From an uncultured delta proteobacterium (GTDB lineage: Bacteria > Myxococcota_A > Polyangia > Polyangiales > Polyangiaceae): DNA of 64,000 nt. Where the stretch lies: NCBI GenBank assembly GCA_963716725.1, contig CAVQUB010000034.1:119281-183280 (forward strand). Direction: 5' to 3'. Every line of letters starts with the position of its first letter. Within the stretch, counting starts at the first letter, position 1. A program made the position numbers and the translations under genes. The notes below the pieces were generated by a model, which saw nothing but the letters and a program-made list of their open reading frames with translations, was not told the origin of the DNA and searched no databases. Positions 18,440-38,075 of this stretch are shown in pieces.

Positions 18440-19408
18440 GTGCCGAGCGTGGACCGACAGACCGTCGTCGAAGCCCTGAACCACACGCTGGACCAGAGCG
18501 ACTTCCCCACTCTCGGCGCCAAATACGAAGGCAAGGTCCGCGACAACTACTCGCGGGACGGCAAGCGCACGATCATCGTCACCGATCGCATCAGCGCCTT
18601 CGATCGAATCCTGGGCACCCTCCCCCTCAAGGGTCAGCTCTTGAATCACGTCGCCGCGTGGTGGTTCGACAAGACGGCCGATGTCGCGCCCAATCACGTG
18701 ATCGCGGTGCCCGATCCCAACGTGCTCATCGCCCACGAGTGCACGCCGCTCCCGGTAGAGATGGTGATGCGCGGCTACCTGACGGGCACCACCTCGACGA
18801 GCATCTGGGTGCACTACGAGAAGGGCGCGCGAACGTTCTGCGGTCACGCGCTCCCCGACGGCCTGAAGAAGCACCAGCGTTTGCCCGCCCCCCTCCTCAC
18901 GCCGAGCACCAAGGCCGCGAAGGGCGGCCACGACGTCTCGGCGAGCCGCAGCGAAATCCTCGCGATCTCGGGCATGGCCCCGGCCGACTTCGACCAGGCC
19001 GCCGACATGGCCATGGCCCTCTTCGCCGCGGGCCAGCGCATCGCCGCCGACCGCGGCCTGATCCTGGTCGACACCAAATACGAGCTCGGCCGCACCCACG
19101 ACGGGCGCATCGTGGTCATCGACGAGATCCACACCCCCGACTCGTCGCGCTACTGGAAAAGCGCCACCTACGACGCGCGCTTCGCGGCGGGCCAAGACCC
19201 CGAGAGCTTCGACAAGGAGTACCTACGCCGCTGGCTCTCGGAGCGCGGCTTCACCGGCGACGGGCCGATTCCGGCAATACCGGATGAGATCCGGGTGGAG
19301 GCCACGCTGCGCTACATCGAAGCGATCGAAACGCTGACCGGTGAAGCGTTCGTGCCGAATACGGAAGAGCCGGTTGGGAGGATGCGGAGGAATCTGGGGA
19401 TTGGGTGA
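18440..19408 (+). CDS. purC: Phosphoribosylaminoimidazole-succinocarboxamide (SAICAR) synthase
   Basis: YEGKVRD, TDRISAFD, LVDTKYELG, DEIHTPDSSRYW, SFDKEYLR motifs. Confidence 0.95.
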   Translation: MPSVDRQTVVEALNHTLDQSDFPTLGAKYEGKVRDNYSRDGKRTIIVTDRISAFDRILGTLPLKGQLLNHVAAWWFDKTADVAPNHVIAVPDPNVLIAHECTPLPVEMVMRGYLTGTTSTSIWVHYEKGARTFCGHALPDGLKKHQRLPAPLLTPSTKAAKGGHDVSASRSEILAISGMAPADFDQAADMAMALFAAGQRIAADRGLILVDTKYELGRTHDGRIVVIDEIHTPDSSRYWKSATYDARFAAGQDPESFDKEYLRRWLSERGFTGDGPIPAIPDEIRVEATLRYIEAIETLTGEAFVPNTEEPVGRMRRNLGIG

Positions 19409-19474
19409 GGGGCGGGCGGGGCTGACGGGTGGGGGATCCCCCCGGTCGAACACCCCGCTGTCTGGTTGGCGATT
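19352..19474 (+). repeat. purC 3' end + 66 nt downstream, copy 1 (resident)
   Basis: 123 nt repeated at 25724-25846 (1 mismatch), diverged at 23833-23912 and 31251-31343; contains the GGGGGATCCCCC palindrome. Confidence 0.95.
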
Positions 19475-19628
19475 CGGGCGTGCTCCCGCGAACGCCGGAG
19501 ATCATCGTGGCAGAGCGCGAGGCGCATCCGAGCGGGCGCGTGCCGAAGACAGTGAAGGCGCCCGTGACGCGCAACGTGCGGTGAAACTCGCCTGGCCGGC
19601 GTTCGGCGGGTGGAACGGCCAGTTATGC
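19465..19628 (-). repeat. attC-like site, about 165-bp family, one end degenerate
   Basis: CCCGCGAACGCCGG...CCGGCGTTCGGCGGGTGGAACGGCCA-GTTATGC. Confidence 0.7.
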
Positions 19629-19696
19629 CGTGGTGGAACACAGAGAGCCGGGTTGCGGAGGCCGTCGGCGCAGCAACCGTGTGCCATGGTCGTCGC

Positions 19697-20414
19697 TCAC
19701 CGAGACGCAAGCGCCTTGACGAGAGTCCAGCAGTCATCGAGGGCGTCGTGGTGCGCTGTGCCCGGTTGGTCATCGAGGGTCTGGCGCATCACGACGTGGC
19801 GAAGTCCCGCACGGACGCCCTCAACAACGAACCCGCCGCCTTCTGCGACGACGCAACTCGCCTCGTGACCACCGGGACCACATACCCTGACGTGGGAATG
19901 AACGTCTCTGCTGAAGTCGTCGAGTGGCGCGGCGTTCCAGAAACCGCGGTCCATGCAGGCGTCGATTCGAGTCCACGCGGTCAGAGGAGCAGACCAGCTG
20001 TCGACCGTGTGCGCAATGCCGAGCCCGTCTCGATCCTCGCAGGGGCCCCAGCGCTTGAGACGCGCGCGACAGAGCGACGCACGACGTTCCAGTGTAACGA
20101 CGCTTCCAAAAGTTCCGCCAACAAGGAATCGATACGCGGGCGCTCCCGACGAGTCTGGCAACGTGGCCTCACCGTGCAGGAGCAACTCGCCCGCGGCGAG
20201 GCGGAGCCATCGCGCACTCTGCAGGCGGGGAGAGAGGCCTGGAAAGAGTTCCGCGGTGGTTGCCGAGTCCGCCGGAGCCGGCGGCTGATCTACGGCAATC
20301 GGCTGGGTGGGGCAGCGGGGGAGGGCCATGCGTTCGCAGCCGGGCACTGTCGCCATGGTCAGGGCGGTCAGGGCCGCGGGAAGGCGGCGCGAAGCAGCGG
20401 TTGCGGCAAGCATC
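19697..20414 (-). CDS. Hypothetical cassette protein, possibly a lipoprotein
   Basis: ORF between attC-like sites; ...LTALTMATVPGC possible lipobox. Confidence 0.35.
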
Positions 20415-20509
20415 AGGTCGTCGCTGATCTCGCGCAGGCGTTTCCGGTGAGAAGACAGCGGGATAACGAATCGAAATTCAGCTGCGAAGGCAGCCTCAAC
20501 TTCACTGGA

Positions 20510-20586
20510 TGCTACCACTCCAGCAGCACACCTGGGGCGCTGCGGCTGGCGGGTCAGCCTTCGGCTGCTGAAATTTCCTGTTAGAC
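20510..20586 (-). repeat. Short attC-like site (degenerate R')
   Basis: Minus strand GTCTAAC-aggaaatttCAGCAGC...GCTGCTG just after the stop codon of 20596-21387. Confidence 0.55.
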
Positions 20587-20595
20587 CGCACCCGA

Positions 20596-21387
20596 CTACG
20601 CAGCGAGCAGCGCTTCCAAGTTGGTTCGATCTGAGAACGGCTGAAGCGTGCTGTACTGCTCAATCCGTTTGAGATCCTCGTCACGATAGACACGGTTGAT
20701 GTCAACGCTGTCGTCCAGCAAGGTCACTCGGCTCTCTGTCGCGCCACCGGCATTGAGATCGTGCCACTTCCGGAAGACTTCGTTCGCTTGCACATGACCC
20801 GAGGAGGTCATGCGAGAGAAGAGCGTTATGATCGCCGAACGGGTGGATTTTCCGGTAACCACGAAATCAACCGGAACGGGGCCGAACTGGCCGCTCAGTT
20901 GAATGGACGGCTCATACTGCAAACTCGCGTCCGAAAGGAACTCTTCGACGTCCTCGTTGAACGGGCTTTGGAGTTGAAGGCGCTTGGTGAAGAGCAGGTC
21001 TGACATTCTCACGCACGCCTGGCCCAGGAGGACGATCCCTTCCTGCAACGAATCGTCCGTGGGCGTAACCGGCAACTCGAGGGCACCGCCGCGGAGTGAA
21101 GCCCCGTAGAGATCGATTGCTTGTTCAAGCTGGGTTCGCCGCTTCTTTGAAGTCCACGGCTGGACGTCGTGGTCGAGGAGAAATGCCATGGTCTGGCCGA
21201 GGTCGCTCAGGCGCATCGGGGGCAGAAGCGGTGCGCTGGGCTCATCAACGACGAAGACGTCGACGGACGAACCGTCGGGATAGAGAAACCCAGTCTGGAT
21301 CCGGATGTGCCCCTTGGGGAGCATGTCGACCTGCCTGACCATGCAGAGGTCAGCAATTGTCTTGGCGAGGGCTGGCGCGTTTTGCAT
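20596..21387 (-). CDS. DUF1828-like protein with C-terminal restriction-endonuclease-like domain
   Basis: IQTGFLYPDGSSVDVFV and RLSDLGQT (DUF1828-like); VPVDFVV in the C-terminal domain. Confidence 0.7.
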   Translation of the reverse strand: MQNAPALAKTIADLCMVRQVDMLPKGHIRIQTGFLYPDGSSVDVFVVDEPSAPLLPPMRLSDLGQTMAFLLDHDVQPWTSKKRRTQLEQAIDLYGASLRGGALELPVTPTDDSLQEGIVLLGQACVRMSDLLFTKRLQLQSPFNEDVEEFLSDASLQYEPSIQLSGQFGPVPVDFVVTGKSTRSAIITLFSRMTSSGHVQANEVFRKWHDLNAGGATESRVTLLDDSVDINRVYRDEDLKRIEQYSTLQPFSDRTNLEALLAA

Positions 21388-21399
21388 GATCGAAGCTGA

Positions 21400-21825
21400 T
21401 CAAGGGACCTCGAAGGTCCCGTTGTGATTGATGTTTGCCGCAGCGCAGAAGTCCGCAAAGACGTCTTGAATGGTTTTGCCGGAGAGGTCCGCCCGCGTCT
21501 GTACGCCATCTCGAAGGTTCCTGGCGACACTGTGGTCGTCCTGAACAGAGTGTTTGTGGGAGCGCCCGGCAGATCCGTGGCAGGCCCCATCGACGTCGAG
21601 ACGACAGATCGGTCCTTCGCCAATCAGAGTGACGTTGATCGTCTTGGCGCCAGTCTCGAGATTGTAGTTGACGTTCATGACGATGTTCACGCCGCTTGGG
21701 TTGGTGATGGGGATGCGCGAGGCGGTGAGCAGGGGGTGGGTAGCCGCCTTTTCGACGAGCTTTATGTCGACATCGATCGACTTGCCGGACAAGTCGCGCA
21801 GCGCACGGAAATCTGGGTTGTTCAC
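21400..21825 (-). CDS. Small hypothetical protein upstream of the DUF1828-like gene
   Basis: GPICRLDVDGACH...HKH...FADFCAAANI; 12 bp from the next gene; GTG start assumed. Confidence 0.65.
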   Translation of the reverse strand: MNNPDFRALRDLSGKSIDVDIKLVEKAATHPLLTASRIPITNPSGVNIVMNVNYNLETGAKTINVTLIGEGPICRLDVDGACHGSAGRSHKHSVQDDHSVARNLRDGVQTRADLSGKTIQDVFADFCAAANINHNGTFEVP

Positions 21826-21840
21826 GCTTCGGTGATCCCG

Positions 21841-21869
21841 AGCGTACCTGCTCGCCACACACTCGTCCA
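21841..21869 (-). promoter_or_regulatory. Putative sigma70 promoter for the two-gene cassette
   Basis: TGGACG-17 nt-TACGCT on the minus strand. Confidence 0.35.
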
Positions 21870-21994
21870 TATTGCGCCAGGGCCGGATGAAGTGTGGACT
21901 TGGACAGGACGGCGTGCCCCCGCAGGCGCACGGAAGCAGGCGCAACGACCGGCGGCGCCTGGCTTCGCTTCGTCCACTGACCGCGTCCGCGGGG

Positions 21995-22993
21995 TCAAAC
22001 GATCATACGCTTGGTTTCGCGGTCCCAAGAATCAATCACCCCCGCGTAGGGCAACCTAACGTCGTTGACATCCTCCAGCGCTAGCAAACGAACACAGTTC
22101 TTTCCACGTTCCTGCCTGGGCATCAGGCGCCCCAGCCCTTTCCATCCGGCGGACTGCAGGGTGTTGTTGCACGCGCGGCGGATCACAGACGCCAAAACGT
22201 CAACCATTTGAATGCCCGTTACCCGGTGCGACGCGCAAAACTTCATGTCGCTCAAGAGAGCGTCAATGTCCACGTAGGTGAACGGTCCGTCCGGGCCAGA
22301 GACGCGCTCGCGAAGATGCTCAGGGGGCTCGGCTCTCTGGCCCATGTACCGCTGGAAGGCCGAGTAGTCAGCGCCCTTCATGCAAGCCAACGGGGTTGAG
22401 AGCGACTGGGTTTGTAACAGGGGGCCGACAATATCTTGCCAAAGCTGCTCGTGTCGCGTGGGAGTTACATCCTTTGCGTCGAGTCGCCAGCAGAATCTGC
22501 CAAGGGCCTTTGGAATCCTCTGGCTGTAGTAGAGAGTCGAAGCGGCAAGCACGGAATGCATCAAGGTCGTGAGCAGCACGGATTGGACATATAGTTGATC
22601 CGACAGGCTGCGCACTCGCGCCGCCAAACCTTCGAGTCGAGCTCGCACGGTTGATGCCATCGCGGGTGTCACGCTCGCGAGGATCTTTACGGCCTGCTCT
22701 TCCTTGTGGGACGAGATGCCTTGCCCGGTATGTATGCCCATGTCGATCACGGTCGCGATCAGAAGGATATCCAACCGCCGAATCGTGCGGATCACCTCCG
22801 CCATCTGCGCCTCCAAGAGTTGGCTTCCCTTGACCTCGCGGCCGCCGACTTTCCAGGGCTTGGTCACCCGGCGGAACTTCCGAAAGAGCGTTGTCGCTAG
22901 ACTCTCGGGAACAACCAAGGCCGCGACGCAGGAGACCGCATTCGGTCTGGGCGGTATCTGAAAGGCACCTGCTTCGTCGATGAAGATGTACAT
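21995..22993 (-). CDS. DUF3800 domain protein
   Basis: N-terminal YIFIDEAG, EVKGS, C-terminal GIQMVDVLAS. Confidence 0.8.
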   Translation of the reverse strand: MYIFIDEAGAFQIPPRPNAVSCVAALVVPESLATTLFRKFRRVTKPWKVGGREVKGSQLLEAQMAEVIRTIRRLDILLIATVIDMGIHTGQGISSHKEEQAVKILASVTPAMASTVRARLEGLAARVRSLSDQLYVQSVLLTTLMHSVLAASTLYYSQRIPKALGRFCWRLDAKDVTPTRHEQLWQDIVGPLLQTQSLSTPLACMKGADYSAFQRYMGQRAEPPEHLRERVSGPDGPFTYVDIDALLSDMKFCASHRVTGIQMVDVLASVIRRACNNTLQSAGWKGLGRLMPRQERGKNCVRLLALEDVNDVRLPYAGVIDSWDRETKRMIV

Positions 22994-23084
22994 CGTCGAT
23001 GCTGTCCTCACCTTGAGTCCGACCGAAGGTTCTCGGGAGCACCACGCGGCGATGAAGCAAGGGCGTTCATGTACGGTTCGGCCG

Positions 23085-23833
23085 GTCTAACTGGCGTTCT
23101 CCCTCGAACGCCGGTGGCAATGTTAGCGGAAGACACCGCCGCGGGCACCAGCTCAGCGACCCAGCGCCTCCCGCACCCGAGCGAGCGCCTCCGGCAGCGC
23201 ACGCTCGACCAGTTGCGCTTCCAGCCGAAGCACGCGGTAGCCGAGCGTCGTAAGCCTGCGGTCGCGCCGAGCATCCGCCGCGCCACGACCGCGGTGTGCG
23301 CTGCCGTCCACCTCGATGATGAGCCGCCGGGCGGGCACCACGAAGTCGGCGATGAATTCCCCGACCACCACCTGGCGCCGCACCTCGACTCCGAGTTGGT
23401 GCGCGCGAAGCACGCGCCACAGCGCGGCCTCCGAGGCCGTGGGCGCCGCGCGCATCGCTGCGGCGCGGGCGGCAAGGAGCTGTTGGCGGCGGAGCTGTTG
23501 GCGGTCGCGAGCGAGCATGGTTCCTCCGAGGCCCGGCGTGGTGGGCGGGCTTCGCGGCCCAGGGCGCACGATCTGTGACACGCCGCCCTTTGCGCTCGCT
23601 CGGAGGCGCCGGCTCTCGTGCTCAGTGCGTCGCGCCTGGTGAAAACGCGGCGTGGCGCAGAGCGTGCGCCGCTGAGCGGAGCCCGACCGCCGCGCCGGGC
23701 CGAGGCCCACCCGGCTCGCATGCGTCACCTCACCGGGAGCGCGACAACCACGCGAACGCGTCCCCCTCAATCGCGCTGCGCGCGATTGGGGGGGGACCGC
23801 CGAGCGCAGCGAGGCGAGGGGGGGCAACCCGAG
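23085..23833 (-). mobile_element. DUF559 module copy 1 (half attC + ORF + about 310-nt leader)
   Basis: Near-identical to 24963-25724. Confidence 0.8.
23153..23518 (-). CDS. DUF559 (Vsr-like) endonuclease, copy 1
   Basis: MRAAPTASEAALW...RRQ...IADF...IEVDGSAH...DARRD...LGYRVLR; GGAGG SD. Confidence 0.9.
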   Translation of the reverse strand: MLARDRQQLRRQQLLAARAAAMRAAPTASEAALWRVLRAHQLGVEVRRQVVVGEFIADFVVPARRLIIEVDGSAHRGRGAADARRDRRLTTLGYRVLRLEAQLVERALPEALARVREALGR

Positions 23834-23912
23834 TGCCGAATACCGAGGAGCCGATCGCGCGGATGCGGAGGAATCTGGGGATTGGGGGGTGAGGGGCGGG
23901 CGGGGGTGACGG
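23833..23912 (+). repeat. Diverged purC 3'-end copy (VPNTEEPIARMRRNLGIGG*)
   Basis: Aligns to 19352-19430. Confidence 0.9.
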
Positions 23913-24212
23913 TGCCCTGGCTCCGGTGGCTGGGGATCACATGGTCTCAACGGATTCCAGCAACCTGCCCTGGAAAGAGAGCGGTGCGGCGAGTTCGCCC
24001 GGCCGACGCGGCACGTGGCACCGGCCGGGCAGAGGGCGGCACCGGATGAGCGGAAACTGACGAGCGGCCGCGAGGTCGACGCGGAGGGGACTTGCGTCGG
24101 TTGGGGGTGCGATTCGGCCGGCAGCGCGCAGACCGCTGCACCGACCAGGAACACGAGCAGCACAACGCATCTGACACCAGGGCTTTGGGCGTCTTGGGAA
24201 TGTGTTCAGACC

Positions 24213-24296
24213 GGAGAACGATCTGGCTTTCACCTGCAGGCGACCGAAGGAGCGCAGCGACCGACGGCGACTCTCACGTGCAACAGCATATTAGGC
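24213..24296 (-). repeat. attC site (84 bp)
   Basis: Minus strand GCCTAAT-atgctgTTGCAC...GGTGAAagccagatc-GTTCTCC right after the stop of 24304-24924. Confidence 0.7.
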
Positions 24297-24303
24297 CGTC
24301 TCC

Positions 24304-24924
24304 CTACTGGGATGAGAGTTCTTCTGCGTAGCGTCCAGCTGCGATCCTCCGCGCAGCGTGAGCGAGGTCACGGAGAAGATCGGCAAGCTCATCCCAGCTC
24401 AGTGAGGTCTTGGCGCAGTGGAGCCCGTCGTTGGCGAGCCAGAGAGCTTGTGGGTGACCTTCGGGAAGCTGCTCTGGAAGGTAGTGCTTGCTCAAATTGT
24501 ACAGCTGATTGAGTCGACTTGCCGGACTCTCGTCGCTCTTCTCGAAGAGGCGCTGGCCCGTGACTCGCGCGCCCACATCGAGACCCTGGTAGAGCGTCGC
24601 CAAGGCATGCTCAAGGTGTGACAACGCTTCGAAGTAGACACCAACTCCGCGGGACTTCGTCTTGTCTCCGCTCAAGTACTGGTTCACCGCGTCGACCCCC
24701 GCATCGTGCGCGAGTATGCTGCTACTGCTGCGCCTGATTACAGCGAAGGCGAGTTGCGTTCCCCTGGGGCTGCATGGCGCGCTGAAGACTGAATTGAGGA
24801 CGAACTGCTGTAACCAGTGGGCGCCGTCCGCGAACTCGTCCCGGAGCGGCTTCGCCGAACAGGCGCCCAAGAGCGAGAGTTCCTGTGAAACGAAGGTATC
24901 GAGAGCAAAGTTGCTGAGCGGCAT
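24304..24924 (-). CDS. Hypothetical cassette protein (helical, possible HEPN-like)
   Basis: Clean ORF bounded by attC-like sequences; RLNQLYNLSKH. Confidence 0.7.
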   Translation of the reverse strand: MPLSNFALDTFVSQELSLLGACSAKPLRDEFADGAHWLQQFVLNSVFSAPCSPRGTQLAFAVIRRSSSSILAHDAGVDAVNQYLSGDKTKSRGVGVYFEALSHLEHALATLYQGLDVGARVTGQRLFEKSDESPASRLNQLYNLSKHYLPEQLPEGHPQALWLANDGLHCAKTSLSWDELADLLRDLAHAARRIAAGRYAEELSSQ

Positions 24925-24962
24925 CGCTTCTTCTGGCCCAGGGACCGCGGGATGTGGAGTCA

Positions 24963-25724
24963 GCTAACGATCGCCCTGGCTGGCGTTCTCCCTCGAACGC
25001 CGATGGCAATGATAGCGGAAGGCACGGCCGCGGGCACCAGCTCAGCGCCCCAGCGCCTCCCGCACCCGGGCGAGCGCCACCGGCAGCGCGCGCTCGACGA
25101 GCTCCGCTTCCAGCCGAAGCACGCGATAGCCGAGCTTCGCGAGCTTGCGGTCCCGCCGAGCGTCAGCGGCGCGGTGTGCGCGGTGTGCGCTGCCGTCCAC
25201 TTCGATCACGAGCCGCACGCAAGGCACGACGAAGTCCGCGATCAGCCCGCCGTTCACCACCTGGCGGCGCACTTCGACTCCGAGTTGGTGCGCGCGAAGC
25301 ACGCGCCAGAGCGCGGCCTCCGAGGCCGTTGGCGCGACACGCATCGCGGCGGCGCGGGCGGCAAGGAGCTGTTGGCGGCGGAGCTGTTGGCGGTCGCGAG
25401 CGAGCATGGTTCCTCCGAGGCCCGGCGTGGTGGGCGGGCTTCGCAAGCCTTGGCGCACGATCTGTGACACGCCGCCCTTTGCGCTCGCTCGGAGGCGCCG
25501 GCTCTCGTGCTCAGTGCGTCGCGCCTGGTGAAGGCGCGGCGTGGCGCAGAGCGTGCGCCGGTTAAGCGCAGCCCGCCCGCCGCGTCGGGCCGAGGCCCAC
25601 CCGGCTCGCATGCGTCACCTCACCGGGAGCGCGACAACCACGCGAACGCGTCCCCCCCAATCGCGCGCAGCGCGATTAAGGGGGGGACCGCCGAGCGCAG
25701 TGAGGCGAGGGGGGGCAACCCGAG
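24963..25724 (-). mobile_element. DUF559 module copy 2
   Basis: Same half attC, ORF, leader and GCAACCCGAG boundary as copy 1. Confidence 0.8.
25042..25407 (-). CDS. DUF559 (Vsr-like) endonuclease, copy 2
   Basis: LIADF...IEVDGSAH...DARRDRKL..LGYRVLR. Confidence 0.9.
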   Translation of the reverse strand: MLARDRQQLRRQQLLAARAAAMRVAPTASEAALWRVLRAHQLGVEVRRQVVNGGLIADFVVPCVRLVIEVDGSAHRAHRAADARRDRKLAKLGYRVLRLEAELVERALPVALARVREALGR

Positions 25725-25846
25725 TGCCGAATACGGAAGAGCCGGTTGGGAGGATGCGGAGGAATCTGGGAATTGGGTGAGGGGCGGGCGGGGCTGACGG
25801 GTGGGGGATCCCCCCGGTCGAACACCCCGCTGTCTGGTTGGCGATT
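25724..25846 (+). repeat. purC 3' end + downstream copy, near-identical to resident
   Basis: 1 mismatch in 123 nt versus 19352-19474. Confidence 0.95.
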
Positions 25847-25983
25847 GAGGCGTTCAGCAGCGAACGCCGAGAGTCATCGCAGCAGACCGCGCGCTTGCCG
25901 CAGACAGCGAGGGCGTCCGCGACGCGCGACGGACGGGGAAACTCGCCTGGCCGGCGTTCGGCGGGTGCAACGCCAAGTTAGAC
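25837..25983 (-). repeat. attC-like site; R'' GTCTAAC overlaps the TAA of 25978-26370
   Basis: GCGAACGCCG...CGGCGTTCGGCGGGTGCAACGCCAA-GTTAGAC. Confidence 0.75.
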
Positions 25984-26370
25984 AGCGCCAGTGAGCTCCT
26001 TGTAGCGCCAATAGGATTCGAAAAAGGCATCGTGGAGCATGGCGCGGTCGTCGTCGTCGGTAGGTTCAACTAGATCCAGCCCAAGCCAGTCCGCGCAGGG
26101 GACGAGTTCCGGATCGCCTACGCCGTCGATCAAACAGAACAAGCGGAAGATCGTTGTCGCACACGCATCGGCAACGACCTTCTGGAGGGCCGAGTGGGCG
26201 TCCGGGGACAAGCCCAGCGTCTGCAGTGCACGGAGTTCCGAGTCGGACAGCACGGGCTCCGGCGGGTAGCCGACCTTGGCGGAAGCGCGCCCCAGACCCT
26301 CGACCGCCTCGCACGCGGCGTCACGAATCAATCGGTGGACTTCGACGAGGAGAGCATCACGAGGGGTCAT
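25978..26370 (-). CDS. Hypothetical cassette protein
   Basis: ORF fills the cassette; ends MLHDAFFESYW. Confidence 0.7.
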   Translation of the reverse strand: MTPRDALLVEVHRLIRDAACEAVEGLGRASAKVGYPPEPVLSDSELRALQTLGLSPDAHSALQKVVADACATTIFRLFCLIDGVGDPELVPCADWLGLDLVEPTDDDDRAMLHDAFFESYWRYKELTGAV

Positions 26371-26385
26371 GAGGAACGCCCGGCT

Positions 26386-26551: not shown

Positions 26552-26569
26552 AGCCCTCGCGCCGCTCGT

Positions 26570-30487: not shown

Positions 30488-30497
30488 TGGTGTTGCC

Positions 30498-30593
30498 GCC
30501 TAACGAGGCCGCTCAGCCGCGAGCGGCGCCACGAGTCTACCACCCTTGCGAGACGGGCGAACGCCGGTCGTCGGCTGCAGCGGCTTGTTAGAC
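30498..30593 (-). repeat. Canonical attC site (96 bp)
   Basis: Minus strand GTCTAAC-AAGCCGCTGCAGCCGAC...GCGGCTGAGCGGCCTC-GTTAGGC; R'' overlaps a TAA. Confidence 0.9.
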
Positions 30594-30905
30594 CGCTGTA
30601 GCCAACTCGAGAAAGCACGTACGAAGTTCCTGCTCGACGGCCGGCGTCGGAACTCCAGCCGAGGCGAGGAAGTCAGCGAATAGAAGGAGCGTTCCGTAAA
30701 GATCTTCACCGTCAGTCGGGTACAGCGCGCAGATCACGGCGCGGACGGCAGCAGCGTGCGACGGATCTGAGGCGGCATCAACGAAATGCCAGCACGCAAC
30801 GCGCGCGTTCACGACATCCGCTAGCGGTTGGGTTCCGTGGTGATAGTCCCGAATCACGAGCAGTGCGGTGCGAGCGGTCTCCGGCAGGCCCTCCTCAATA
30901 AGCCG
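30588..30905 (-). pseudogene. 5'-truncated cassette gene
   Basis: Plausible helical protein C-terminus ending in the attC R''; no start codon; abuts a DUF559 leader. Confidence 0.55.
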
Positions 30906-30907
30906 GT

Positions 30908-31250
30908 TTCTCCGAGGCCCGGCACCCCTTCGAGTGTCACGAAGCGCGTCGTGGTGGGCGGGCTTCGCGATCCCTGGCGCACGATCTGTGACGCGCCGCC
31001 CGTTGCGCTTCGCTCGGAGGCGCCGGCTCTCGAGCTCGGGACGTCGCGTCTCGCAGGCGCGCGGCGTGGCGCAGACCGTGCGCCGCCGAGCGGAGCCCGA
31101 CCGCCACGCAGAGCCGAGGCCCACCCGGCTCGCGCACGTCACCTCAGCGGGAGCGCGGCGACCACGCGAACGCGCCCCCCCAATCGCGCGCAGCGCGATT
31201 AAGGGGGGGACCGCCGAGCGCAGTGAGGCGAGGGGGGGGGGCAACCCGAG
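30908..31250 (-). repeat. DUF559 module leader without the ORF (copy 3)
   Basis: Aligns to 23522-23833 including hairpin and GCAACCCGAG boundary. Confidence 0.85.
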
Positions 31251-31343
31251 CGGAGGAATTTGGGGATCGCGGGGTGAGAGGCGGGCGGGGGGAACGGGTG
31301 GGGGATCCCCCCGGTCGAACACCCCGCTGTCTGGTTGACGATT
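31251..31343 (+). repeat. Diverged purC tail (RRNLGIAG*) + downstream palindrome
   Basis: Aligns to 19385-19474. Confidence 0.85.
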
Positions 31344-31498
31344 GAGGCGTTCGGCAACGAACGCCGAGACGAAGGGTATCAGACCGCCGAGCGTTTTCGA
31401 GACGGCGCGTGCCGCAACAAATTGGGCGCCGGCCGCCGCGGAACGGACGGTGATGCTCGCCACTGCCGGTGTTCGGCGGGTGCAACGTCCAGTTATGC
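31333..31498 (-). repeat. attC-like site (166 bp)
   Basis: GGTTGAC...GTTCGGCGGGTGCAACGTCCA-GTTATGC. Confidence 0.75.
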
Positions 31499-31503
31499 GG
31501 TAC

Positions 31504-31797
31504 TCAGCCTCGCGTTTGCCAGGTTGCCGGGTGGCGCTTGCCGTGAGCGACTGCGACGATCGCGATCAAGTCGGGATAGACCCGATAGTACACGCCATAC
31601 GGGAACCGGTTGAGGACCGTGCACCTCAGGCCGCGATACCGGACAGCGAACGAAGTCGGACCTTCGCCGATCTGGCGGACGGCGTCGTCGAGTTCAGCGC
31701 GAAACACGAAACCGAGCCCAGCGCCTTGAGTCTCGTACCACTGGAACGCCTCGAGCGCGTCGACCTCGGCCTCCGTCGTGAAGACGACTGGGGTCAA
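31504..31797 (-). CDS. Type II TA toxin, RelE/ParE family
   Basis: FTTEAEVDALEAFQWYE...GLG...LNRFPYGVYY...IVAVAHGKRHP..W. Confidence 0.9.
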   Translation of the reverse strand: MTPVVFTTEAEVDALEAFQWYETQGAGLGFVFRAELDDAVRQIGEGPTSFAVRYRGLRCTVLNRFPYGVYYRVYPDLIAIVAVAHGKRHPATWQTRG

Positions 31798-32009
31798 CGT
31801 TTTCCGGTCGTCATGCGAGCCCGGACCTGGTCCCAAGGCACGCCGGTCGGGCCCTCCCGATCAAGACGATCGAGTCGTCGGTCCAGCTCAGCGCGAAGCT
31901 CCGACGAAAGCGGGAGGTCCTCGGGCTTGAAGCTGCCCCAGAGTTCGTCGATAAGATCGAGCTTCTCGTCGGCGGTGAGATTCGAGATGTCCACGGCAGG
32001 TTTCGCCAC
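31794..32009 (-). CDS. Addiction-module antitoxin
   Basis: LTADEKLDLIDELWGS...ELDRRL...GVPWDQVRAR; 4-bp overlap with the toxin. Confidence 0.85.
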   Translation of the reverse strand: MAKPAVDISNLTADEKLDLIDELWGSFKPEDLPLSSELRAELDRRLDRLDREGPTGVPWDQVRARMTTGKR

Positions 32010-32087
32010 CCCCGCATGATGCCTCCGGTGGGAAGATCGCGCCAGAACCACCAACCGCGAAGGTGCAGCCATGGCTACCATGCGGCC

Positions 32088-32252
32088 GGATAACGAGACA
32101 CACGTTCACCCGCGAACGCCGAGCGTCAAGTCGTCAGTCGGCAAGGCGCAACAGACGCGGGCGAGTGCCGCATCAGAATGTTCGCCCGCGGAAGCGGAAC
32201 GGACGGTGAAGTCGGCAAGACCGGCGTTCGGCGGGTGCAACGTGAGTTATGC
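32088..32252 (-). repeat. attC site (165 bp)
   Basis: GGATAAC...GTTATGC; duplicate of 26937-27101. Confidence 0.8.
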
Positions 32253-32304
32253 AGCCTCAACCACGACTCGAATGGTTCGGCGGCGCGAAGCACCACGTCT
32301 GAGC

Positions 32305-33084
32305 TCATCGCGTGAACTCTCGCGACAACGTCGCGAGCACGTCGCCAAACGTCTCTTTGATTTTGCCTTTGGAGTACCGAATTTGCTGAATGCCCTGAAC
32401 ATTGCTGAACTCCTCGCACCCTTCCTCGAGCAGCAAGATTGTGTTTCGGAAGCCCAGCCGCCCTTGGAACAACCCTGCCTCGTGGACAACGTTCTGGCGC
32501 GCACGAAGTGTTCCATCGGCCAGTTCGTCTTCGGCCGTCAGAACTAGCAACGCGAACGCAGAGGTGCTCAGCATTTCTTCGAGTACGTCGCGGACGGTGT
32601 GCCCGGCCCGGGCGCCGCTCTCGAATGCTTGCACCGGGTAGCCGTGGAGCTCGTGTAGGTGATCCTTCAGGTCGCGCCACTGCGCGCTCCTTCCGTGCCC
32701 GATGAAGAGTACGGGCTTTGCACGCTTCGCTGGGGCCGGCTGTGGAATGCGCTTCGCAGCCGAAAGCGCGCTCTCGAAAATTGCGAACAGACTTTCGATT
32801 GTTGCACGGGAAGCGGCGCTGACGGAGGTGCGCGTGCGCCAGCCCCAAGCCGTCTTGCCGTCCGAAGAGCCCTGGTACGCGCCATACGCGCCGACGCTGA
32901 CAGCCAGGGCGTCCCCACGAAACATGACGCGGGAATCCCCGCGGGACCGCCTGTAGTCGGCGGCAAACTCGGGAAACGAGTCGTGGTCCCACTCGGCGCC
33001 ATCAACGGTGATCACGAGAGACAGGGGCGCACATGACTCGTCCAGCCTTTGGCACTCCTTCAGCACGCTTTCCAGTGTTTCCAC
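32305..33084 (-). CDS. TIR-like nucleotide-binding domain protein (Cap12/PycTIR-type TIR family)
   Basis: FIGHGRS...FALLVLTAED...ARQNVVHEAGLFQGRLG...SNVQG. Confidence 0.85.
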   Translation of the reverse strand: METLESVLKECQRLDESCAPLSLVITVDGAEWDHDSFPEFAADYRRSRGDSRVMFRGDALAVSVGAYGAYQGSSDGKTAWGWRTRTSVSAASRATIESLFAIFESALSAAKRIPQPAPAKRAKPVLFIGHGRSAQWRDLKDHLHELHGYPVQAFESGARAGHTVRDVLEEMLSTSAFALLVLTAEDELADGTLRARQNVVHEAGLFQGRLGFRNTILLLEEGCEEFSNVQGIQQIRYSKGKIKETFGDVLATLSREFTR

Positions 33085-33160
33085 CCCGAAGTGGGTGAAG
33101 TCGAATACCTTGGTCTTCCGCTCGGGACTTCTCAGTGAGCGGGTCGCTCTCGCGCGGTCC

Positions 33161-33326
33161 GCCCAACGGTTTGGCGTTCACCCGCGAACGCCGAGACCAA
33201 GAGATACCAGAGAGCGCGGCGGTGCACACGCGGGCGAGTGCCGCAGAACGAAGGGTGCACGCGGCTGTGGAACGGACGGTTCAGAGCGGTACGGCCGGCG
33301 GTCGGCGGGTGCAACGTGAGTTAGGC
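33161..33326 (-). repeat. attC site (166 bp)
   Basis: GCCCAAC-ggtttggcgTTCACCCGC...GCGGGTGCAACGTGA-GTTAGGC. Confidence 0.85.
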
Positions 33327-33356
33327 GGCGTCAAGAACACGTGGTAAGTTTGGGGA

Positions 33357-33566
33357 ATGCGCACGTACACGGCAGTCGTGGAACGAGACGCCGACACCGG
33401 CTGGTACGTCGGCCACGTACCGGGTTGGCCCGGTGCGCACTCGCAAGGCGCGACAGAGGACGAGCTCCGTCGGAATCTCGAGGAAGTCATCGCGATGCTC
33501 CTCGAGGATGGCGAGCCGACGCTCGAGTCAGAGTTCGTGGGGACGCAGACAGTCCGGGTTGCGTAG
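33357..33566 (+). CDS. hicB: HicB-family antitoxin (short form)
   Basis: YVGHVPGWPGAHSQGATEDELRRNLEEVI. Confidence 0.85.
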   Translation: MRTYTAVVERDADTGWYVGHVPGWPGAHSQGATEDELRRNLEEVIAMLLEDGEPTLESEFVGTQTVRVA

Positions 33567-33569
33567 GAC

Positions 33570-33794
33570 GTGGGTGACGTTCCCGTTCTGAAACCGCGCG
33601 AAGTGGTCGCGATCCTGGCTCATCTAGGCTTCGCTGAGGTGCGACAACGCGGCTCGCACAAGCAATTTCGCCACTCGGATGGGCGCGTCACGACAGTGCC
33701 GGTTCACACGGGTCGGGACATCTCGCCAAGCCTGGTACGCCAGATCGCGCGCGACATTGGTATGGACGTGCGCGATTTCATCGCGCAGCGGTGA
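33570..33794 (+). CDS. hicA: HicA-family mRNA interferase toxin
   Basis: LGFAEVRQRGSHKQFRH..GRVTTVPVH. Confidence 0.9.
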   Translation: MGDVPVLKPREVVAILAHLGFAEVRQRGSHKQFRHSDGRVTTVPVHTGRDISPSLVRQIARDIGMDVRDFIAQR

Positions 33795-33813
33795 CGAGGG
33801 TCGCCGGGAGTCC

Positions 33814-33843
33814 GCCCAACTGGCGTTCTCCCTCGAACGCCGG
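33814..33843 (-). repeat. Half attC of the DUF559-module type
   Basis: GCCCAACTGGCGTTCTCCCTCGAACGCCGG, as at 23085 and 36774. Confidence 0.75.
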
Positions 33844-34378
33844 GCTCCCACATCCCCCGAGGCCACTCCGCTTCCGAGACCGCGCGCGACGCGCGAAAGA
33901 ACTGACCATGCCGGCGCGGCCGCTGGCGGGTCCTCCCGGGGAAATTCGTGGCCATGGAGTTTCGGGCCCCCACCCACCCCGCGTGGGCTGGAAAAAAGGG
34001 AGGATGGCAGCTCGGGCCGGTCCCGGATTCGAGCCCATATTCCTTCAGCATCGCTCCCTGCCTGGGCCAGTTTGCCGACGACCCAAGCTACCACCTGCCC
34101 GCTGTCTGCATGTCCGCTGTGTCCGTCGAGGCCACCCCGCTCTGGGACGTTGGGCTCAACGAGGGCCGCTGCACCCTGGAGCCCGGGAAGACCTACTACC
34201 TCAACACCATCAGCGCCGTTCTGCCAGATTTGACGACCACCGCGTGCAAGCGAGACGACTATTGCTCCACACCAGTCGATTTCGGCGGCACCGTCGGCTG
34301 GCCTTCGCAGGCCCCGTGATGGTCAAGGGTTGAGGCGGCCCCGTTGAAGCGCTGCCCACCGGTTCCCTCTGGTCCGGA

Positions 34379-34753
34379 GTGTTGGGTGCGGCCGCGGTGG
34401 TGGCGCTGATCGCGGTGGTGGCGCTCATCATCATCTACGCGCGAGCGCCGGCGGAGGGAGCGGTACCTGCCGAACCGTCCGTAGAGATCAGCGGCGCGTC
34501 GAACGAGTCGAGCGAAGCTGCCATGTCGACGCTGTCCGACGCCACCGCCGGCCCTGGACCCATTGCAACTGCGGCTGCGGTCGCCCCGACGCCAACGCCA
34601 GCCAGTGCGCCGCCGCCTGCCACGCCTGGTGTTGTTCCGCCGGGACCCAAGCGTCCGCCCACCGTGCGGCCGCCGAAACCAAAACCGAACTGCGCACCAC
34701 CGTACACCTTGGACAAGGACGGCGTGCGCATTCCGAAACGGGAGTGTTTTTAG
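34379..34753 (+). pseudogene. C-terminal fragment resembling a myxobacterial Ser/Thr kinase extracellular tail
   Basis: TM helix, Pro/Ala linker, terminal CAPPYTLDKDGVRIPKREC; no kinase domain upstream. Confidence 0.5.
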
Positions 34754-34787
34754 ACGGCGCGGATCCCTCGCTGCATGCGCAAACCGT

Positions 34788-35486
34788 TCACGCCGGCTCT
34801 TGCCGCGTCCACAGCCCGGTCCACTCGGGCACTCGCGCCCAGCCGCGCGCAAGCACTTTGGTTGCCAGTTCCGGTCCGAAGAAGAAGCCCAAGCAGCGGG
34901 CGGCGGACGCAGCATCGTCGAACGCGTAGTCCGTCGCGAACTGCCTCCGCTCGAAGCCCTGCTGCTCCAGCCAGGCGTAGTACTCGCCAAGGCGCTCGTT
35001 CGGCGGCGCTGCCGCTTCCTCTGCGGTGCCCAAAGTCTCAATCACCGCCAGCGTTCCTCCGGGAATCACCACGCGCCGCATCTCCGAGAGCGCTTGGGCG
35101 ATGTGCGTCCTCCAGCCCGCTTCCTCCCAATAGCGGAAGTGCCCAAAGACCCAGCCGGCCACAGCGCCGTGCATGCTGTCGTTTTCGAACGGCAACGCGC
35201 GCCCGTCGCCGAGCGTGAGTTCGAGCTGGTGCGGGACGTACTCCGCGAGCTGGGTCCGAGCCACGTCCAACATAGCGGCTTCCGGCTCAAGGGCGACTAC
35301 CTGTGCCCCCTGTTCCAGAAGCAAGCGGGAGACCCGGCCCGTGCCCGCGCCAACATCCAGCAGTCTGCCTGGCACGCTGCTGAAGATGTCGCACAGCGCA
35401 TGCCTCAGGTTGTCGTCCGCGTCCTCTGCGGTCACCAGCTCGTGATAGCGGTCCGCGTGGTTCCGATAGACTTCACGAAACTCCAT
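34788..35486 (-). CDS. Class I SAM-dependent methyltransferase
   Basis: LLDVGAGTG, GDGRALPF. Confidence 0.9.
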   Translation of the reverse strand: MEFREVYRNHADRYHELVTAEDADDNLRHALCDIFSSVPGRLLDVGAGTGRVSRLLLEQGAQVVALEPEAAMLDVARTQLAEYVPHQLELTLGDGRALPFENDSMHGAVAGWVFGHFRYWEEAGWRTHIAQALSEMRRVVIPGGTLAVIETLGTAEEAAAPPNERLGEYYAWLEQQGFERRQFATDYAFDDAASAARCLGFFFGPELATKVLARGWARVPEWTGLWTRQEPA

Positions 35487-36184
35487 GCTGGGACCTCGCA
35501 GCGAAGGGCTACGGAGTCAATCTAGTTTCGCGCGCCATACCTAGCGGAAGGAAAGGTCGACGTTGGCTTCACGCACGGGTCCTGTTGGCGCGTGCCCAGC
35601 TTGGATGTCGTAGTTCACACCTCGCCCTCGTCAGCGAGCCGCGTGCCAAGCAGGTGACGCCAGAATTTCCCGTGACTCCGCTCGCCCTCCAGGTGGCGAA
35701 CTGGCGAAGTCTGACACGATGAGTTTCGAATTGAATGAGGTCTCCGAGGGCGCAACTGGCACCGTGCAAGCCTACGTCGGAGTGTCTGGGCCTAGTTCCC
35801 AGCAGGGATGGCGGACTCCAGCGGGCGCTTGCACGATTGATGTCACCGAGCACACGGTGGTTGATGACAACTATCAGGACATGCGCGAGTACCGAATCGG
35901 GGGTACGGGCTCCTGCGACCAGGGCGCGTCTGGCACGTCGGGAATCGTGGACATCGGCGCGTTTTCCATGCGTGGCGTTCTCTTCTGGGAGAAGTGACCG
36001 ATCCCGCGCGAGCCCCCCGAACGTCTTGCCGCTCAGCCGCAAGCACCAGCAGAGTCGACTCCACGAGACCGCCCCGGAGGGGGTCTCGTCGCTCGCGCGC
36101 GGGACCTAGACGACCATCTGTTCGCAGTGCACCTTCTATCGCGGTGTGAGGGCGGTGGTGGCGTCCACGCGGCGCCGAGGTTCG

Positions 36185-36277
36185 CAAGAACCGAGGCGCT
36201 AAGCCCCGCGCGCAGGGCGGAACGAACAGCAGCCAGTCGGAAAGCCCGCGGTCGTCTGCTGCAACGTCCTGTTAGGC
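36185..36277 (-). repeat. attC-like site; R'' GCCTAAC overlaps the TAA of 36272-36760
   Basis: GTCTGCTGCAACGTCCT-GTTAGGC; the other arm is disrupted (possible arm at about 36015 CCCGAACGTCTTGCCGCTCAGCCGC). Confidence 0.6.
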
Positions 36278-36760
36278 ATCCTCGGCGCCTTCGTCGTAGA
36301 TCCTTGAATAGTTACCGAACTCGGTACCCTTCAAATCGGTGGCGACGACCTGTTCCGCGACGTCATAGTCGACGACGTAGCAGCACACTTCCATCGTGTC
36401 CGAGCCAATACTTCCACCGTCGCACATGCCGAGCCCCGTCCACCCCAACGTTTGGTCCATCCTGTCCTGCAATCGGTATCGCTTCTTCAAATCGGCAGCA
36501 TCCCCGAATCCGTCGACGGTGTATTCAATCAAGAGGATCCGGTGGTCATCGAGTTCGATTGGTTGGTAACCATCACTCACGAAACGATCAATCTCCGCCT
36601 GGACCTTCGTCTCGACCTTGCGCAGCCCGGTCGACCTAACCGTCTTGGATTCGCCTTTCGCGCCCAGACTTCCCCAATGCACCGTGTGAGAACCGTCGTC
36701 GTTGTCCCACGTTTCCCAGTAGAGAATCTGGCTCGGGGTGCGCCTATAAAGCTTTAGCAC
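36272..36760 (-). CDS. Hypothetical cassette protein with WGR-like N-terminus
   Basis: YWETW...VHWGSLG; GWTGLGMCDGGSIG. Confidence 0.75.
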   Translation of the reverse strand: MLKLYRRTPSQILYWETWDNDDGSHTVHWGSLGAKGESKTVRSTGLRKVETKVQAEIDRFVSDGYQPIELDDHRILLIEYTVDGFGDAADLKKRYRLQDRMDQTLGWTGLGMCDGGSIGSDTMEVCCYVVDYDVAEQVVATDLKGTEFGNYSRIYDEGAEDA

Positions 36761-36773
36761 CTGCTTGATGCCT

Positions 36774-36930
36774 GCCTAACTGGCGTTCTCCCTCGAACGC
36801 CGGTGGCAACGATAGCGGAAGACACGGCCGCGGGCACCAGCTCACCGGCCCAGCGCCGCCCGCACCCGCTCGAGCGCCACCGGCAGCGCGCGCTCGACGA
36901 GCGCAGTGAGGCGAGGGGGGGCAACCCGAG
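36774..36930 (-). mobile_element. Internally deleted DUF559 module (copy 4)
   Basis: Half attC + last about 19 codons of the ORF joined directly to GCGCAGTGAGGCGAGGGGGGGCAACCCGAG. Confidence 0.85.
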
Positions 36931-36971
36931 CGGAGCAGCTTGGTGATCGTGGGTGCTGAGGCAACAGCGAC

Positions 36972-37694
36972 TTACTCCGCGGGGTTGGAAGATCGGATTG
37001 CCTCCCACCCGAACGTCTTGGCCTGATGGACCCAGTCAAGCTCGGCAAGAACGGCTTGGCTGCCGAGCTCGCTTGCATGCTTCCACTGGTCCTCGGTCAG
37101 CGGGACGAGCTGCAGCAAATTGAGCTCCATCGCGCCGTCGAGCTCGCCGGTAGTAGCCAGCAGATAGCGCTCGTCTTCTTTTCGCTTCTGCCGGTTTGGG
37201 AAGTCGAGCATCTCGGCGGGCTCGGTTGCCGGAACGATCACGAAGTGAAGCAAGTCATGAAACGCGGCGCCCCACAGATCGAATGCCTTGAACGCCAAAT
37301 CGCCGGGGCCAGCTGTGGCGACATCGTGAGCCAACATGAACAAGAACTCCGCGACTCGCGCGTCTCGCTTTGGCGAGTACGCGATCAGTTCGAGATGCGG
37401 CATCACGCCCTCAGCGCGTTGCGGGACGAAGGCGAGGCCCGCGCTGAGGTACGTCCAATACTCGCGGCCCTCGGACTGACCAAACTCCAACACGAGAAAG
37501 TCTGGCCGATTCGGCAACTCCATCCCGGGGTTCGGTTTCCACTCGTCCGTCGGGTCTCCCAAGAAGTCGATCACGTGAGATATCCAGCGAGCGCGGGCGC
37601 CCCATTGCGCGGAGAGCATCCAGTCCGGAACGCGCGCAGTCGCCGGTTCGGCGCCGACGGTTTGCTTTTTCTTCTTACGGAACCAGCCCAGCAT
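36972..37694 (-). CDS. Suppressor-of-fused (SUFU)-like protein
   Basis: FLVLEF...YWTYLSAGL...ELI...LLQLVPLTEDQW. Confidence 0.7.
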   Translation of the reverse strand: MLGWFRKKKKQTVGAEPATARVPDWMLSAQWGARARWISHVIDFLGDPTDEWKPNPGMELPNRPDFLVLEFGQSEGREYWTYLSAGLAFVPQRAEGVMPHLELIAYSPKRDARVAEFLFMLAHDVATAGPGDLAFKAFDLWGAAFHDLLHFVIVPATEPAEMLDFPNRQKRKEDERYLLATTGELDGAMELNLLQLVPLTEDQWKHASELGSQAVLAELDWVHQAKTFGWEAIRSSNPAE

Positions 37695-37844
37695 GCCTGG
37701 TACTCCCTCGTCCCCACGAGGTTACCGCATTCGCCTGCAAGGTTCCGAAGAGGCGCGGGGGCGCGGGGGCGCGGGCACGCGGGGCCACGCGTGCCGGCGA
37801 CACGGTCGGAAGATGGAACGAAATGCTCGGACATGCGGGCCAGC

Positions 37845-38075
37845 CCGCAGCGCGGCCTCCGAAGCCGTGGGCGCCGCGCGCATCGAGGCGGTGCGGCCGC
37901 CAAGGACCTGTTGACGACGGAGCTGTTGATGGTCGCGAGCGAGCATGGTTCCTCCGAGGCCCGCCGGGCTCGCTCGGCCGCGACAACTCCACGCGAACGT
38001 GTCCCCCCCGATCGCGCGCAGCGCGATTGAGGGGGGGACCGCCGAGCGCAGCGAGGCGAGGGGGGGCAACCCGAG
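37845..38075 (-). mobile_element. Truncated DUF559 module (copy 5): 5' 34 codons + shortened leader
   Basis: MLARDHQQLRRQQ...MRAAPTASEAAL; hairpin and GCAACCCGAG boundary. Confidence 0.85.

Follow-up and report, generated by a model that had tools for sequence, protein, structure and literature searches.

By what means has a housekeeping gene, purC (SAICAR synthetase), become separated from its conserved downstream neighbours by a long run of repeated units in an uncultured member of the Polyangiaceae, a myxobacterium from soil or water? The window, by which we mean the whole 64-kb stretch of DNA analysed here, is the final part of the 183-kb contig CAVQUB010000034.1 (C34) of a metagenome-derived bin (7.9 Mb, 67% G+C, 84% complete, 3.9% contamination). 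This source genome is referred to as G000; C5, C7, C8, C13 and C34 are its contigs, and the other G-numbers are genomes of relatives. Between purC and the gene of an LCM methyltransferase with its neighbours, the spacing in genus relatives is 1.9 kb (G003, G006) or 6.3 kb (G002), whereas in the window this flank is reached only at 41816, and thus 22.4 kb has been added. In the reading that we favour, to which we give a probability of about 0.5, the added stretch is a composite of integron cassettes without a local integrase and at least five units stacked by a module that carries a DUF559 nuclease gene. The landmarks of the region are the following:

18407-19408, plus strand: purC, the anchor gene (Pfam PF01259, E 2.4e-64)
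38649-40814, plus strand: tex, the sole copy in the genome, within the variable region
from 41816: LCM methyltransferase gene, conserved flank

Units stacked behind purC

Self-comparison and direct reading of the junctions revealed five units behind purC, each built on the plan of purC tail, cargo and DUF559 module, and reproduced the unit boundaries proposed in an initial annotation of this DNA:

19352-23832: unit 1
23833-25723: unit 2
25724-31249: unit 3
31250-36932: unit 4
36933-38075: unit 5

The units are closed at 23832, 25723, 31249, 36932 and 38075 by the same terminal motif, ...GAGGCGAGGGGGGGCAACCCGA(G) (repeat family D15, five copies), in agreement with the common end that had been claimed for all DUF559 modules. 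The native purC tail comprises the last 57 nt of the gene (19352-19408, with the stop codon at 19406-19408). The last 18 purC codons are kept in purC of six genus relatives and across the order, and the repeated tail is therefore genuine purC sequence. Three displaced tails were identified:

23833-23912, plus strand: tail of unit 2 (80 nt, 87.5% identity), a different allele with an in-frame extra codon
25724-25831, plus strand: tail of unit 3 with 50 nt of purC-downstream sequence (85% identity over 275 nt, including the adjoining attC site)
31250-31329, plus strand: tail of unit 4, beginning at tail position 33 (78% identity over 255 nt)

At 36933, the tail is reduced to a degenerate stub of ~25 nt, and neither self-comparison nor junction reading detected a tail copy after 38075; four of the five module ends thus abut a copy of the purC 3' end. 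The junction reading agrees with the earlier description of such copies at the unit starts, degenerate in the last one.

The tails also share a run of G tracts, GGGG ATT GGG TGA GGGG C GGG C GGGG, formed by the last purC codons and the next 40 nt (19384-19440). It is repeated at 23865-23912, 25756-25803 and 31250-31297 and belongs to every displaced tail. Judged from the letters, these tracts could form G-quadruplexes.

The modules themselves, all on the minus strand as far as module 5, are arranged as follows:

23081-23832, minus strand: module 1, with a short attC-like half-site (23085-23135), the nuclease gene (23153-23518), the leader hairpin (~23530-23705) and a C-run/G-run hairpin (23762-23795)
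24970-25723, minus strand: module 2, with an intact gene (25042-25407) whose protein is 88% identical to that of module 1
30940-31249, minus strand: remnant of module 3, leader and end, with the nuclease gene lost (hairpin model 46 bits)
36770-36932, minus strand: remnant of module 4, its first 132 nt joined to its last 38 nt
37845-37966 and 37979-38074, minus strand: remnants of module 5, with the terminal motif finishing at 38075
41098-41157 and 41147-41226: fragments of a sixth module

The integrity of the modules therefore declines with distance from purC, from two intact copies through a leader-only copy and two copies reduced to two fragments each to traces past tex. This decay gradient fits addition at the purC end. 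Together with minimal forms of the unit in two relatives (see below), it supports the earlier proposal that new units were added one after another behind the 3' end of purC.

The DUF559 module and its leader hairpin

The module had been described as a constant element built on the DUF559 gene, with hairpins at every unit boundary. The constancy and the hairpins were recovered, but the element is longer than the gene alone: its ~750 nt comprise one gene for a 121-aa nuclease and 314 nt of conserved non-coding DNA upstream of that gene. In module 1, the gene is preceded by a GGAGGA ribosome-binding site, a spacer and ATG, and at the other side the module terminates in a second hairpin followed by the end GGGGGGGCAACCCGA. 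Modules 1 and 2 are 90% identical, and their intact genes match Pfam PF04480 with E-values of 1.7e-24 and 2e-22 (86.2 and 79.6 bits, cut-off 20.6). Residues D58, F59, E69, D71, G72, H75 and D82 are invariant across 22 DUF559 proteins, and from the family we infer that the acidic and histidine residues among them are catalytic. The DUF559 profile matches the solved DUF559 protein 3HRL (E 7e-29) and, more weakly, 3R3P, the catalytic domain of the homing endonuclease I-Bth0305I (E 2.9e-5).

The genome contains nine DUF559 genes. Diverged module copies outside the window keep the same layout with 66-73% nucleotide and 53-77% protein identity. Across genera, the architecture of the module end (a C-run/G-run hairpin, a second hairpin and GGGGCA plus 5-7 nt) is kept though its sequence differs. 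Close relatives of the nuclease occur in 24 of 61 genomes of the family, patchily and in up to 14 copies; a scan of the genome collection with a DUF559-protein pattern gave 598 pattern matches, none of which was confirmed by tblastn.

The non-coding part of the module contains a leader hairpin of ~175 nt, which starts just upstream of the DUF559 start codon and folds as DNA with a z-score of -5.3. An alignment of 24 copies from 16 genomes defined a core helix of 18 bp, which is paired in 94% of cells compared with 73.8% in shuffled alignments (0/500 reach the observed value), and the pairing falls to 26-50% when the partners are slid against each other. Compensatory changes were found in 12 of the 18 core pairs (82 double-change cells). 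G-U pairs occupy a single cell out of 430, so that the covariation proceeds by Watson-Crick changes only. Beside an invariant G-C pair lie two conserved mismatches, which read C.A (20/24) and C.T (22/24) on the gene strand and T.G (20/24) and A.G (22/24) on the opposite strand. In a comparison of minimum free energies, 12 of 37 copies favoured the strand opposite the gene, and most of the rest favoured the gene strand.

The leader hairpin matched no family in Rfam 15, and the only Rfam match between 19000 and 42000 (E up to 1) was GA-cis at 25646-25724, the end of module 2, with 23 bits (gathering threshold 34.7) and E 0.7. A covariance model of the core found 12 sites in the source genome, eight of which adjoin eight of the nine DUF559 genes, the other four lying in module remnants. 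Sites were present in 19 of the 61 sampled family genomes, and 18 of these 19 belong to the 24 with close DUF559 relatives. Even on a cautious view of the module, the leader hairpin is a new structured motif that is well supported and has a clear signature in the genomes.

Recurrence at other genes and in other genomes

Another important question is whether the module is tied to purC and attC sites or to gene ends in general. Modules without either partner were found at six other places in the source genome and in Rhs arrays, so the particular link fails on both counts; a general link to gene ends survives. It is visible first at purC itself. In G003 and G002, the minimal form was found, consisting of the purC stop, a convergent DUF559 gene, the module end and a second purC tail. 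The unit of G003 measures only ~0.6 kb, and its displaced tail begins at the same base as those of units 2 and 3 of the window. In G001, the purC contig ends inside a DUF559 gene, and a second contig holds an additional purC tail adjacent to a module and an attC array. G006 and G004 have module-free purC alleles. Among 80 purC loci of the Polyangiaceae (G002 and G003 not included), DUF559 lay downstream in two and attC in two, all of the genus of the window, and no tail repeat was detected at the threshold used; the link to purC is therefore genus-specific.

Other genes show the same arrangement. On C13 of the source genome, a gene for a 1255-aa Ser/Thr kinase is followed by a module, and against the module end lie a repeat of the final 117 nt of the kinase gene and a remnant of an older module. 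This module shows presence/absence polymorphism, occurring in one of seven genus genomes, the other six having a module-free kinase gene. In G052, three module ends abut 5'-truncated fragments of an Rhs core with differing toxin tips and small downstream open reading frames (ORFs), which are classical orphan units, and a large unnamed gene of G076 is represented by 1-kb fragments directly behind two module ends. The module is thus linked to the displaced 3' part of whichever gene lies upstream, and its end joins abruptly to unrelated positions in these genes. No integron integrase was found at E 1e-30 in the junction-bearing genomes G052, G076 and G072 (96-98% complete), and an integrase is therefore not required for such junctions.

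To quantify the association, the 1.5 kb beyond the nuclease stop was compared with the 700 nt beyond the leader, a test blind to units whose cargo exceeds 1.5 kb, unit 1 among them. Direct repeats across the module were detected at 14 of 46 non-redundant modules compared with 10 of 300 random genome sites; about six of the 14 are short, close gene tails, and some are longer fragments with intervening cargo. The genes upstream of 22 further modules had almost no Pfam matches.

One additional piece of evidence was provided by the differences between functional and displaced copies. In the pooled short tails (purC and kinase), we counted 23.5 synonymous (Sd) and 10.5 nonsynonymous (Nd) differences, with pN/pS 0.15 and in-frame indels. 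The ratio of nonsynonymous to synonymous rates (dN/dS) was 0.08-0.18 in the Rhs fragments and 0.01-0.03 in those of G076, including two displaced copies at dS 0.36, and neither set contains stop codons. Since the differences are mostly synonymous, the fragments diverged mainly inside working genes under purifying selection. This allelic divergence means that the copies are functional alleles of different lineages and not local duplicates, and that the units were assembled by horizontal transfer and displacement.

How the stack could have grown

These data raise the question of mechanism. According to the reading that we favour, a new unit would enter at the 3' end of purC, bringing or keeping a working tail, and would push the earlier tail and unit downstream, so that the youngest unit would lie beside purC and the oldest and most decayed one farthest away. 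The nuclease would initiate this by nicking or cutting its own hairpin or the DNA close to the junction, and the process would be completed by homologous recombination via the tail; the cargo between tail and module could then grow by integrase-mediated cassette insertion. As a speculative alternative, the nuclease might nick its own mismatch-bearing hairpin or the module end, and the freed end might be attached within the upstream gene, either on a sister copy or on a circle, to give units of fragment, cargo and module that would enter homologous genes by recombination. Such nicking would explain why a fixed end is joined to variable positions.

A broader proposal, which we put forward tentatively, is that DUF559 modules are an undescribed bacterial mobile element composed of a Vsr-like nickase, a hairpin of folded DNA for recognition and a fixed structured end. 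After a nick in its own mismatch-bearing hairpin or its end, the element would join, or recombine through, the 3' part of the upstream gene; round after round, integron cassettes, defence genes and Rhs toxin tips gained by horizontal transfer would accumulate behind housekeeping or toxin genes.

Several points weigh against a stack built by the module. That DUF559 is the agent, that it cuts or mobilises DNA and how it would act are matters that we infer. The protein has 121 aa and no separate DNA-binding domain, which makes the recognition of many target genes hard to picture, and no shared motif is evident at the junction breakpoints, several of which follow GAT, GAG or TTC. The final module of multi-unit arrays has no displaced fragment behind it (38075 in the window, 14800 in G052, 18298 in G076), contrary to simple homing into a naive gene. 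Of the 14 modules with direct repeats, one owes its repeat to a module-to-module match, two to attC-like sequence and one to a probable artefact, and 32 of the 46 have no repeat in the flanks examined. By-eye comparison with the relatives' alleles indicates that the 57-nt tails are too short to tell foreign from native, and the apparent order of the units rests on one assembly of a metagenome bin together with short public contigs.

Could ordinary homologous recombination have stacked the units, with DUF559 a passenger or a selfish, addiction-type gene whose conserved DNA is merely portable homology? The possible routes are Campbell-type entry of circles excised between tails, unequal crossing-over and transformation with DNA of relatives. 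We regard this as somewhat unlikely, although tails and modules are indeed repeats open to RecA, and in the window, G052 and G076 the junctions number one fewer than the modules, as tandem duplication or circle entry gives. The modules without a flanking repeat also speak for it, as do the published accounts of Rhs orphan arrays, which in the parts drawn on here make no mention of such a module (PMC3150448, PMC3482391). What recombination by itself leaves unexplained is the constant use of one defined module end for breaks at unrelated sites in four kinds of gene and several genera, and the existence of minimal units in G002 and G003 that hold just the nuclease gene and structured DNA. Moreover, the 57-110 nt of the tails is short for efficient unaided recombination.

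The integron component

The initial annotation had joined attC cassettes and DUF559 modules into a single system. This view did not hold, since the attC sites match those of integrase-bearing integrons and modules occur without attC. Searches with an nhmmer profile built from the genome's own sites revealed 34 attC sites, 11 by an integrase gene on C8, 9 by one on C7, 9 in the window (seven full-length, two partial) and 5 elsewhere. Those listed for the window are:

19461-19629, minus strand: attC of unit 1 (nhmmer E 2.9e-35), with the purC-nearest box degenerate, CTGGTTGGCG instead of xxATAACG
25833-25984, 26384-26552 and 26935-27102, minus strand: three attC of unit 3
31330-31499, 32086-32253 and 33158-33327, minus strand: three attC of unit 4
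40841-40916: half attC

The claim that every unit carries attC-bounded cargo is thus only partly right: units 3 and 4 have three sites each, unit 1 has a single site, and units 2 and 5 have none. The sites measure ~165 nt and form long imperfect hairpins with xxTAAC and GTTAxxx boxes (25-site alignment); the DNA fold of 32080-32262 has -43.4 kcal/mol and a z-score of -3.1. Each cassette of the window holds one ORF on the minus strand, with an attC after it.

The full integron integrase gene lies at C8:394170-395114 (TIGR02249, 444 bits, cut-off 265) with 11 attC within 9 kb, and a partial one on C7 (280 bits, same cut-off) adjoins nine attC. On the contig of the window, none of the genome's 21 TIGR02249 matches and none of its 18 PF00589 matches is located, and no serine recombinase was found in the whole genome; the locus is therefore devoid of tyrosine and serine recombinases, as first noted. 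Because the window sites belong to the same family as the 20 sites beside the two integrase genes, IntI is available in trans. The attC part of the window is then an ordinary attC cluster without its own integrase, which is known biology, and its cassettes could be mobilised by IntI. The three tail-adjacent attC share the degenerate box and were therefore inherited with the tail, not recombined in. An attC-like half-site in modules 1 and 2 and in a C5 copy offers IntI an entry point between tail and module. The integron part is cargo inside the units and not their engine.

Of six genus relatives compared, G001, G002, G004 and G005 carry full IntI genes, and those of G003 are broken. The full gene of G002 (C1:667804-668748) lies on the same strand as purC (625095-626078) at a distance of 42 kb, and the source-genome profile detected no attC within the 40 kb that follow that purC. 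On C8 (385321-395114), the integrase lies upstream of its array on the same strand as the inferred cassette ORFs, a co-directional ('inverted') layout instead of the usual divergent one. Two further loci lie on C5. At C5:376845-377613, a full module (73% identical) has attC halves on both sides, as if inside an attC; at C5:22755-22900, far from purC, an isolated module end runs directly into positions 33-84 of the purC tail, which are 91-98% identical to the window copies. Apparently, module-plus-tail pieces have moved to other loci.

Could integron biology account for the whole stack, the tails having been duplicated by a trans-acting IntI that used attC and secondary sites within purC, and DUF559 being just a cassette? 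We consider this improbable. Three units do contain genuine attC, and modules 1 and 2 and a C5 copy have an attC-like half-site just past the nuclease stop. IntI is described as inserting cassettes outside att sites and excising beyond them (10.1101/2022.09.11.507474), and full IntI is present in four of the six genus relatives, as listed above. Against it stand the junctions in the three genomes without detectable IntI, the lack of any DUF559 match on the integrase-bearing contigs C7 and C8, a unit 2 without attC, and a junction that does not fall at a G/TT triplet.

Tandem integrative islands at the 3' ends of protein-coding or tRNA genes duplicate the target 3' end at each boundary. A tyrosine integrase encoded elsewhere, using the purC 3' end as its att site, might thus have strung together classical islands, and the genome does hold 18 PF00589 matches. 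We nevertheless judge this slightly more improbable still, because units and contig alike lack an integrase gene, the repeat begins at different positions (19352, 19384), the minimal unit of G003 is smaller than 1 kb, and the module is also present at unrelated genes.

The remaining possibility is that assembly strung together alternative purC-downstream haplotypes of co-existing strains, as a metagenome bin, units that start alike and alternative joints between repeats in public contigs (short, at low depth) might suggest; it is very unlikely, since the same type of module-to-tail junction is present in independent assemblies (G001, G002, G003 and other genera) and at other loci, and an artefact would not set the module end, instead of purC coding sequence, before each tail. 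Public short contigs from four runs of three studies cover 30 of 30 bins of 19000-38500 at at least 95% identity, the unique cargo of all five units was found in each of the four runs at at least 99% identity, and the junction at 36932 is bridged by contigs from two runs. Near 23528 and 25417, public runs X1 and X6 show a module end of the G003 type (GGGGCA.GAAGA) joined straight to the start of a leader, which suggests further junction variants with tandem leaders in related strains.

Cargo and neighbouring genes

Between tails and modules, the following cargo was annotated:

20596-23011, minus strand: three genes of unit 1, two matching PDC-M24B/PDC-M24A (Pfam DUF1828), the third weakly DUF3800-like, below the cut-off
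24304-24924, minus strand: 206-aa ORF of unit 2, no family match
25978-26370 and 26570-26950, minus strand: two one-ORF cassettes of unit 3, small ORFs without an assigned family
27146-27961, minus strand: IS4/Tn5-family transposase, N-terminal part only (Pfam PF14706; NCBIfam NF033590 below the cut-off)
28394-28454, plus strand: stray module-end fragment (hairpin region)
28903-29868, plus strand: DUF6910/DUF6929 gene of unit 3
31504-32081, minus strand: ParE toxin and antitoxin cassette of unit 4
32305-33084, minus strand: TIR-domain cassette of unit 4
34788-35486, minus strand: class I SAM methyltransferase of unit 4
36972-37694, minus strand: SUFU-like gene of unit 5 (Pfam PF05076, E 9.5e-7)

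In unit 1, adjacent genes at 20596-21945 match both members of PDC-M24, a candidate defence system in PADLOC (E 1.9e-35 and 7.9e-8). In unit 3, the transposase fragment at 27327-28020 has 5-7 times the surrounding depth in contigs of all four public runs, and the element is therefore repeated in the genome or common in those communities. The same unit contains an internal tex fragment (29916-30025, 110 nt, 97% identical). The tex gene itself is present in only four of seven genus genomes, with no match in G001, G002 and G005 (94-98% complete), and G003 has a second, broken copy with three in-frame TGA codons. As a second anchor gene, tex was rejected, as no DUF559 lies within 1.5 kb of it in G003, G004 or G006.

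Comparison with known systems

DUF559 is a large family, widely distributed, to which no role has been assigned, and the titles and abstract beginnings of the open-access papers and preprints listed for it contained no description of it as part of a mobile unit; as far as these searches show, the DUF559 component is undescribed in bacteria. If the module drives stacking, DUF559 would gain a function, the mitochondrial strategy of a mobile endonuclease with a replacement gene end would reach bacterial chromosomes, and a testable mechanism would be available for the growth of orphan toxin/immunity arrays and of defence-gene stacks behind conserved genes. Integron cassettes would, if this is true, ride as cargo in another mobile unit, which would give attC clusters a way of being copied or relocated independently of their integrase.

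With tandem islands, the locus shares the 3' end duplicated at each boundary, but it has no integrase, its minimal unit is below 1 kb and the start of the repeat varies. Clusters of attC lacking an integron integrase (CALIN) and sedentary chromosomal integrons (PMC4889954) resemble it in the seven homogeneous ~165-nt attC, the one-ORF cassettes and an integrase that is not nearby but elsewhere in the genome. Unlike in CALIN, purC tails and DUF559 modules interrupt the sites, and three tail-adjacent attC share a degenerate box.

The C-terminal displacement of Rhs and CdiA, with its orphan toxin/immunity arrays (PMC3150448, PMC3482391), likewise yields copies of the upstream gene in tandem, each truncated at its 5' end and with new cargo at its 3' end, and the units of G052 are Rhs orphans. 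It differs in that a nuclease module at unit boundaries is absent from the published descriptions as drawn on here, and that the anchor in the window is a housekeeping gene and not a toxin.

Free-standing genes of Vsr-like (EDxHD) homing endonucleases lie in 'fractured' genes, with hairpins upstream of the ORF (PMC2677866), and I-Bth0305I is a Vsr-like homing endonuclease (PMC3239194). The DUF559 gene shares with them the nuclease superfamily, the free-standing position and the upstream hairpins. Unlike the window protein, which is a bare 121-aa domain located behind genes with a duplicated tail, those enzymes possess extra DNA-binding regions and either split genes at inteins or reside in group I introns.

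In layout, the closest analogue of the DUF559 stacks is the C-terminal displacement by fungal mitochondrial mORFs (Allomyces atp6; Glomus atp6, atp9, cox2 and nad3), which insert a foreign C-terminus and leave the native one downstream (PMC3630166). The differences are a bacterial host; a DUF559/Vsr-like nuclease on the opposite strand instead of an in-frame LAGLIDADG or GIY-YIG ORF; a covarying hairpin and a structured, fixed end; tandem stacking with kilobases of cargo; and nuclease cleavage that is here only predicted. What the two have in common is the order of gene, inserted 3' end, endonuclease gene and displaced native 3' end, the divergence of the two ends as alleles of different lineages, and the existence of endonuclease-free alleles in relatives.

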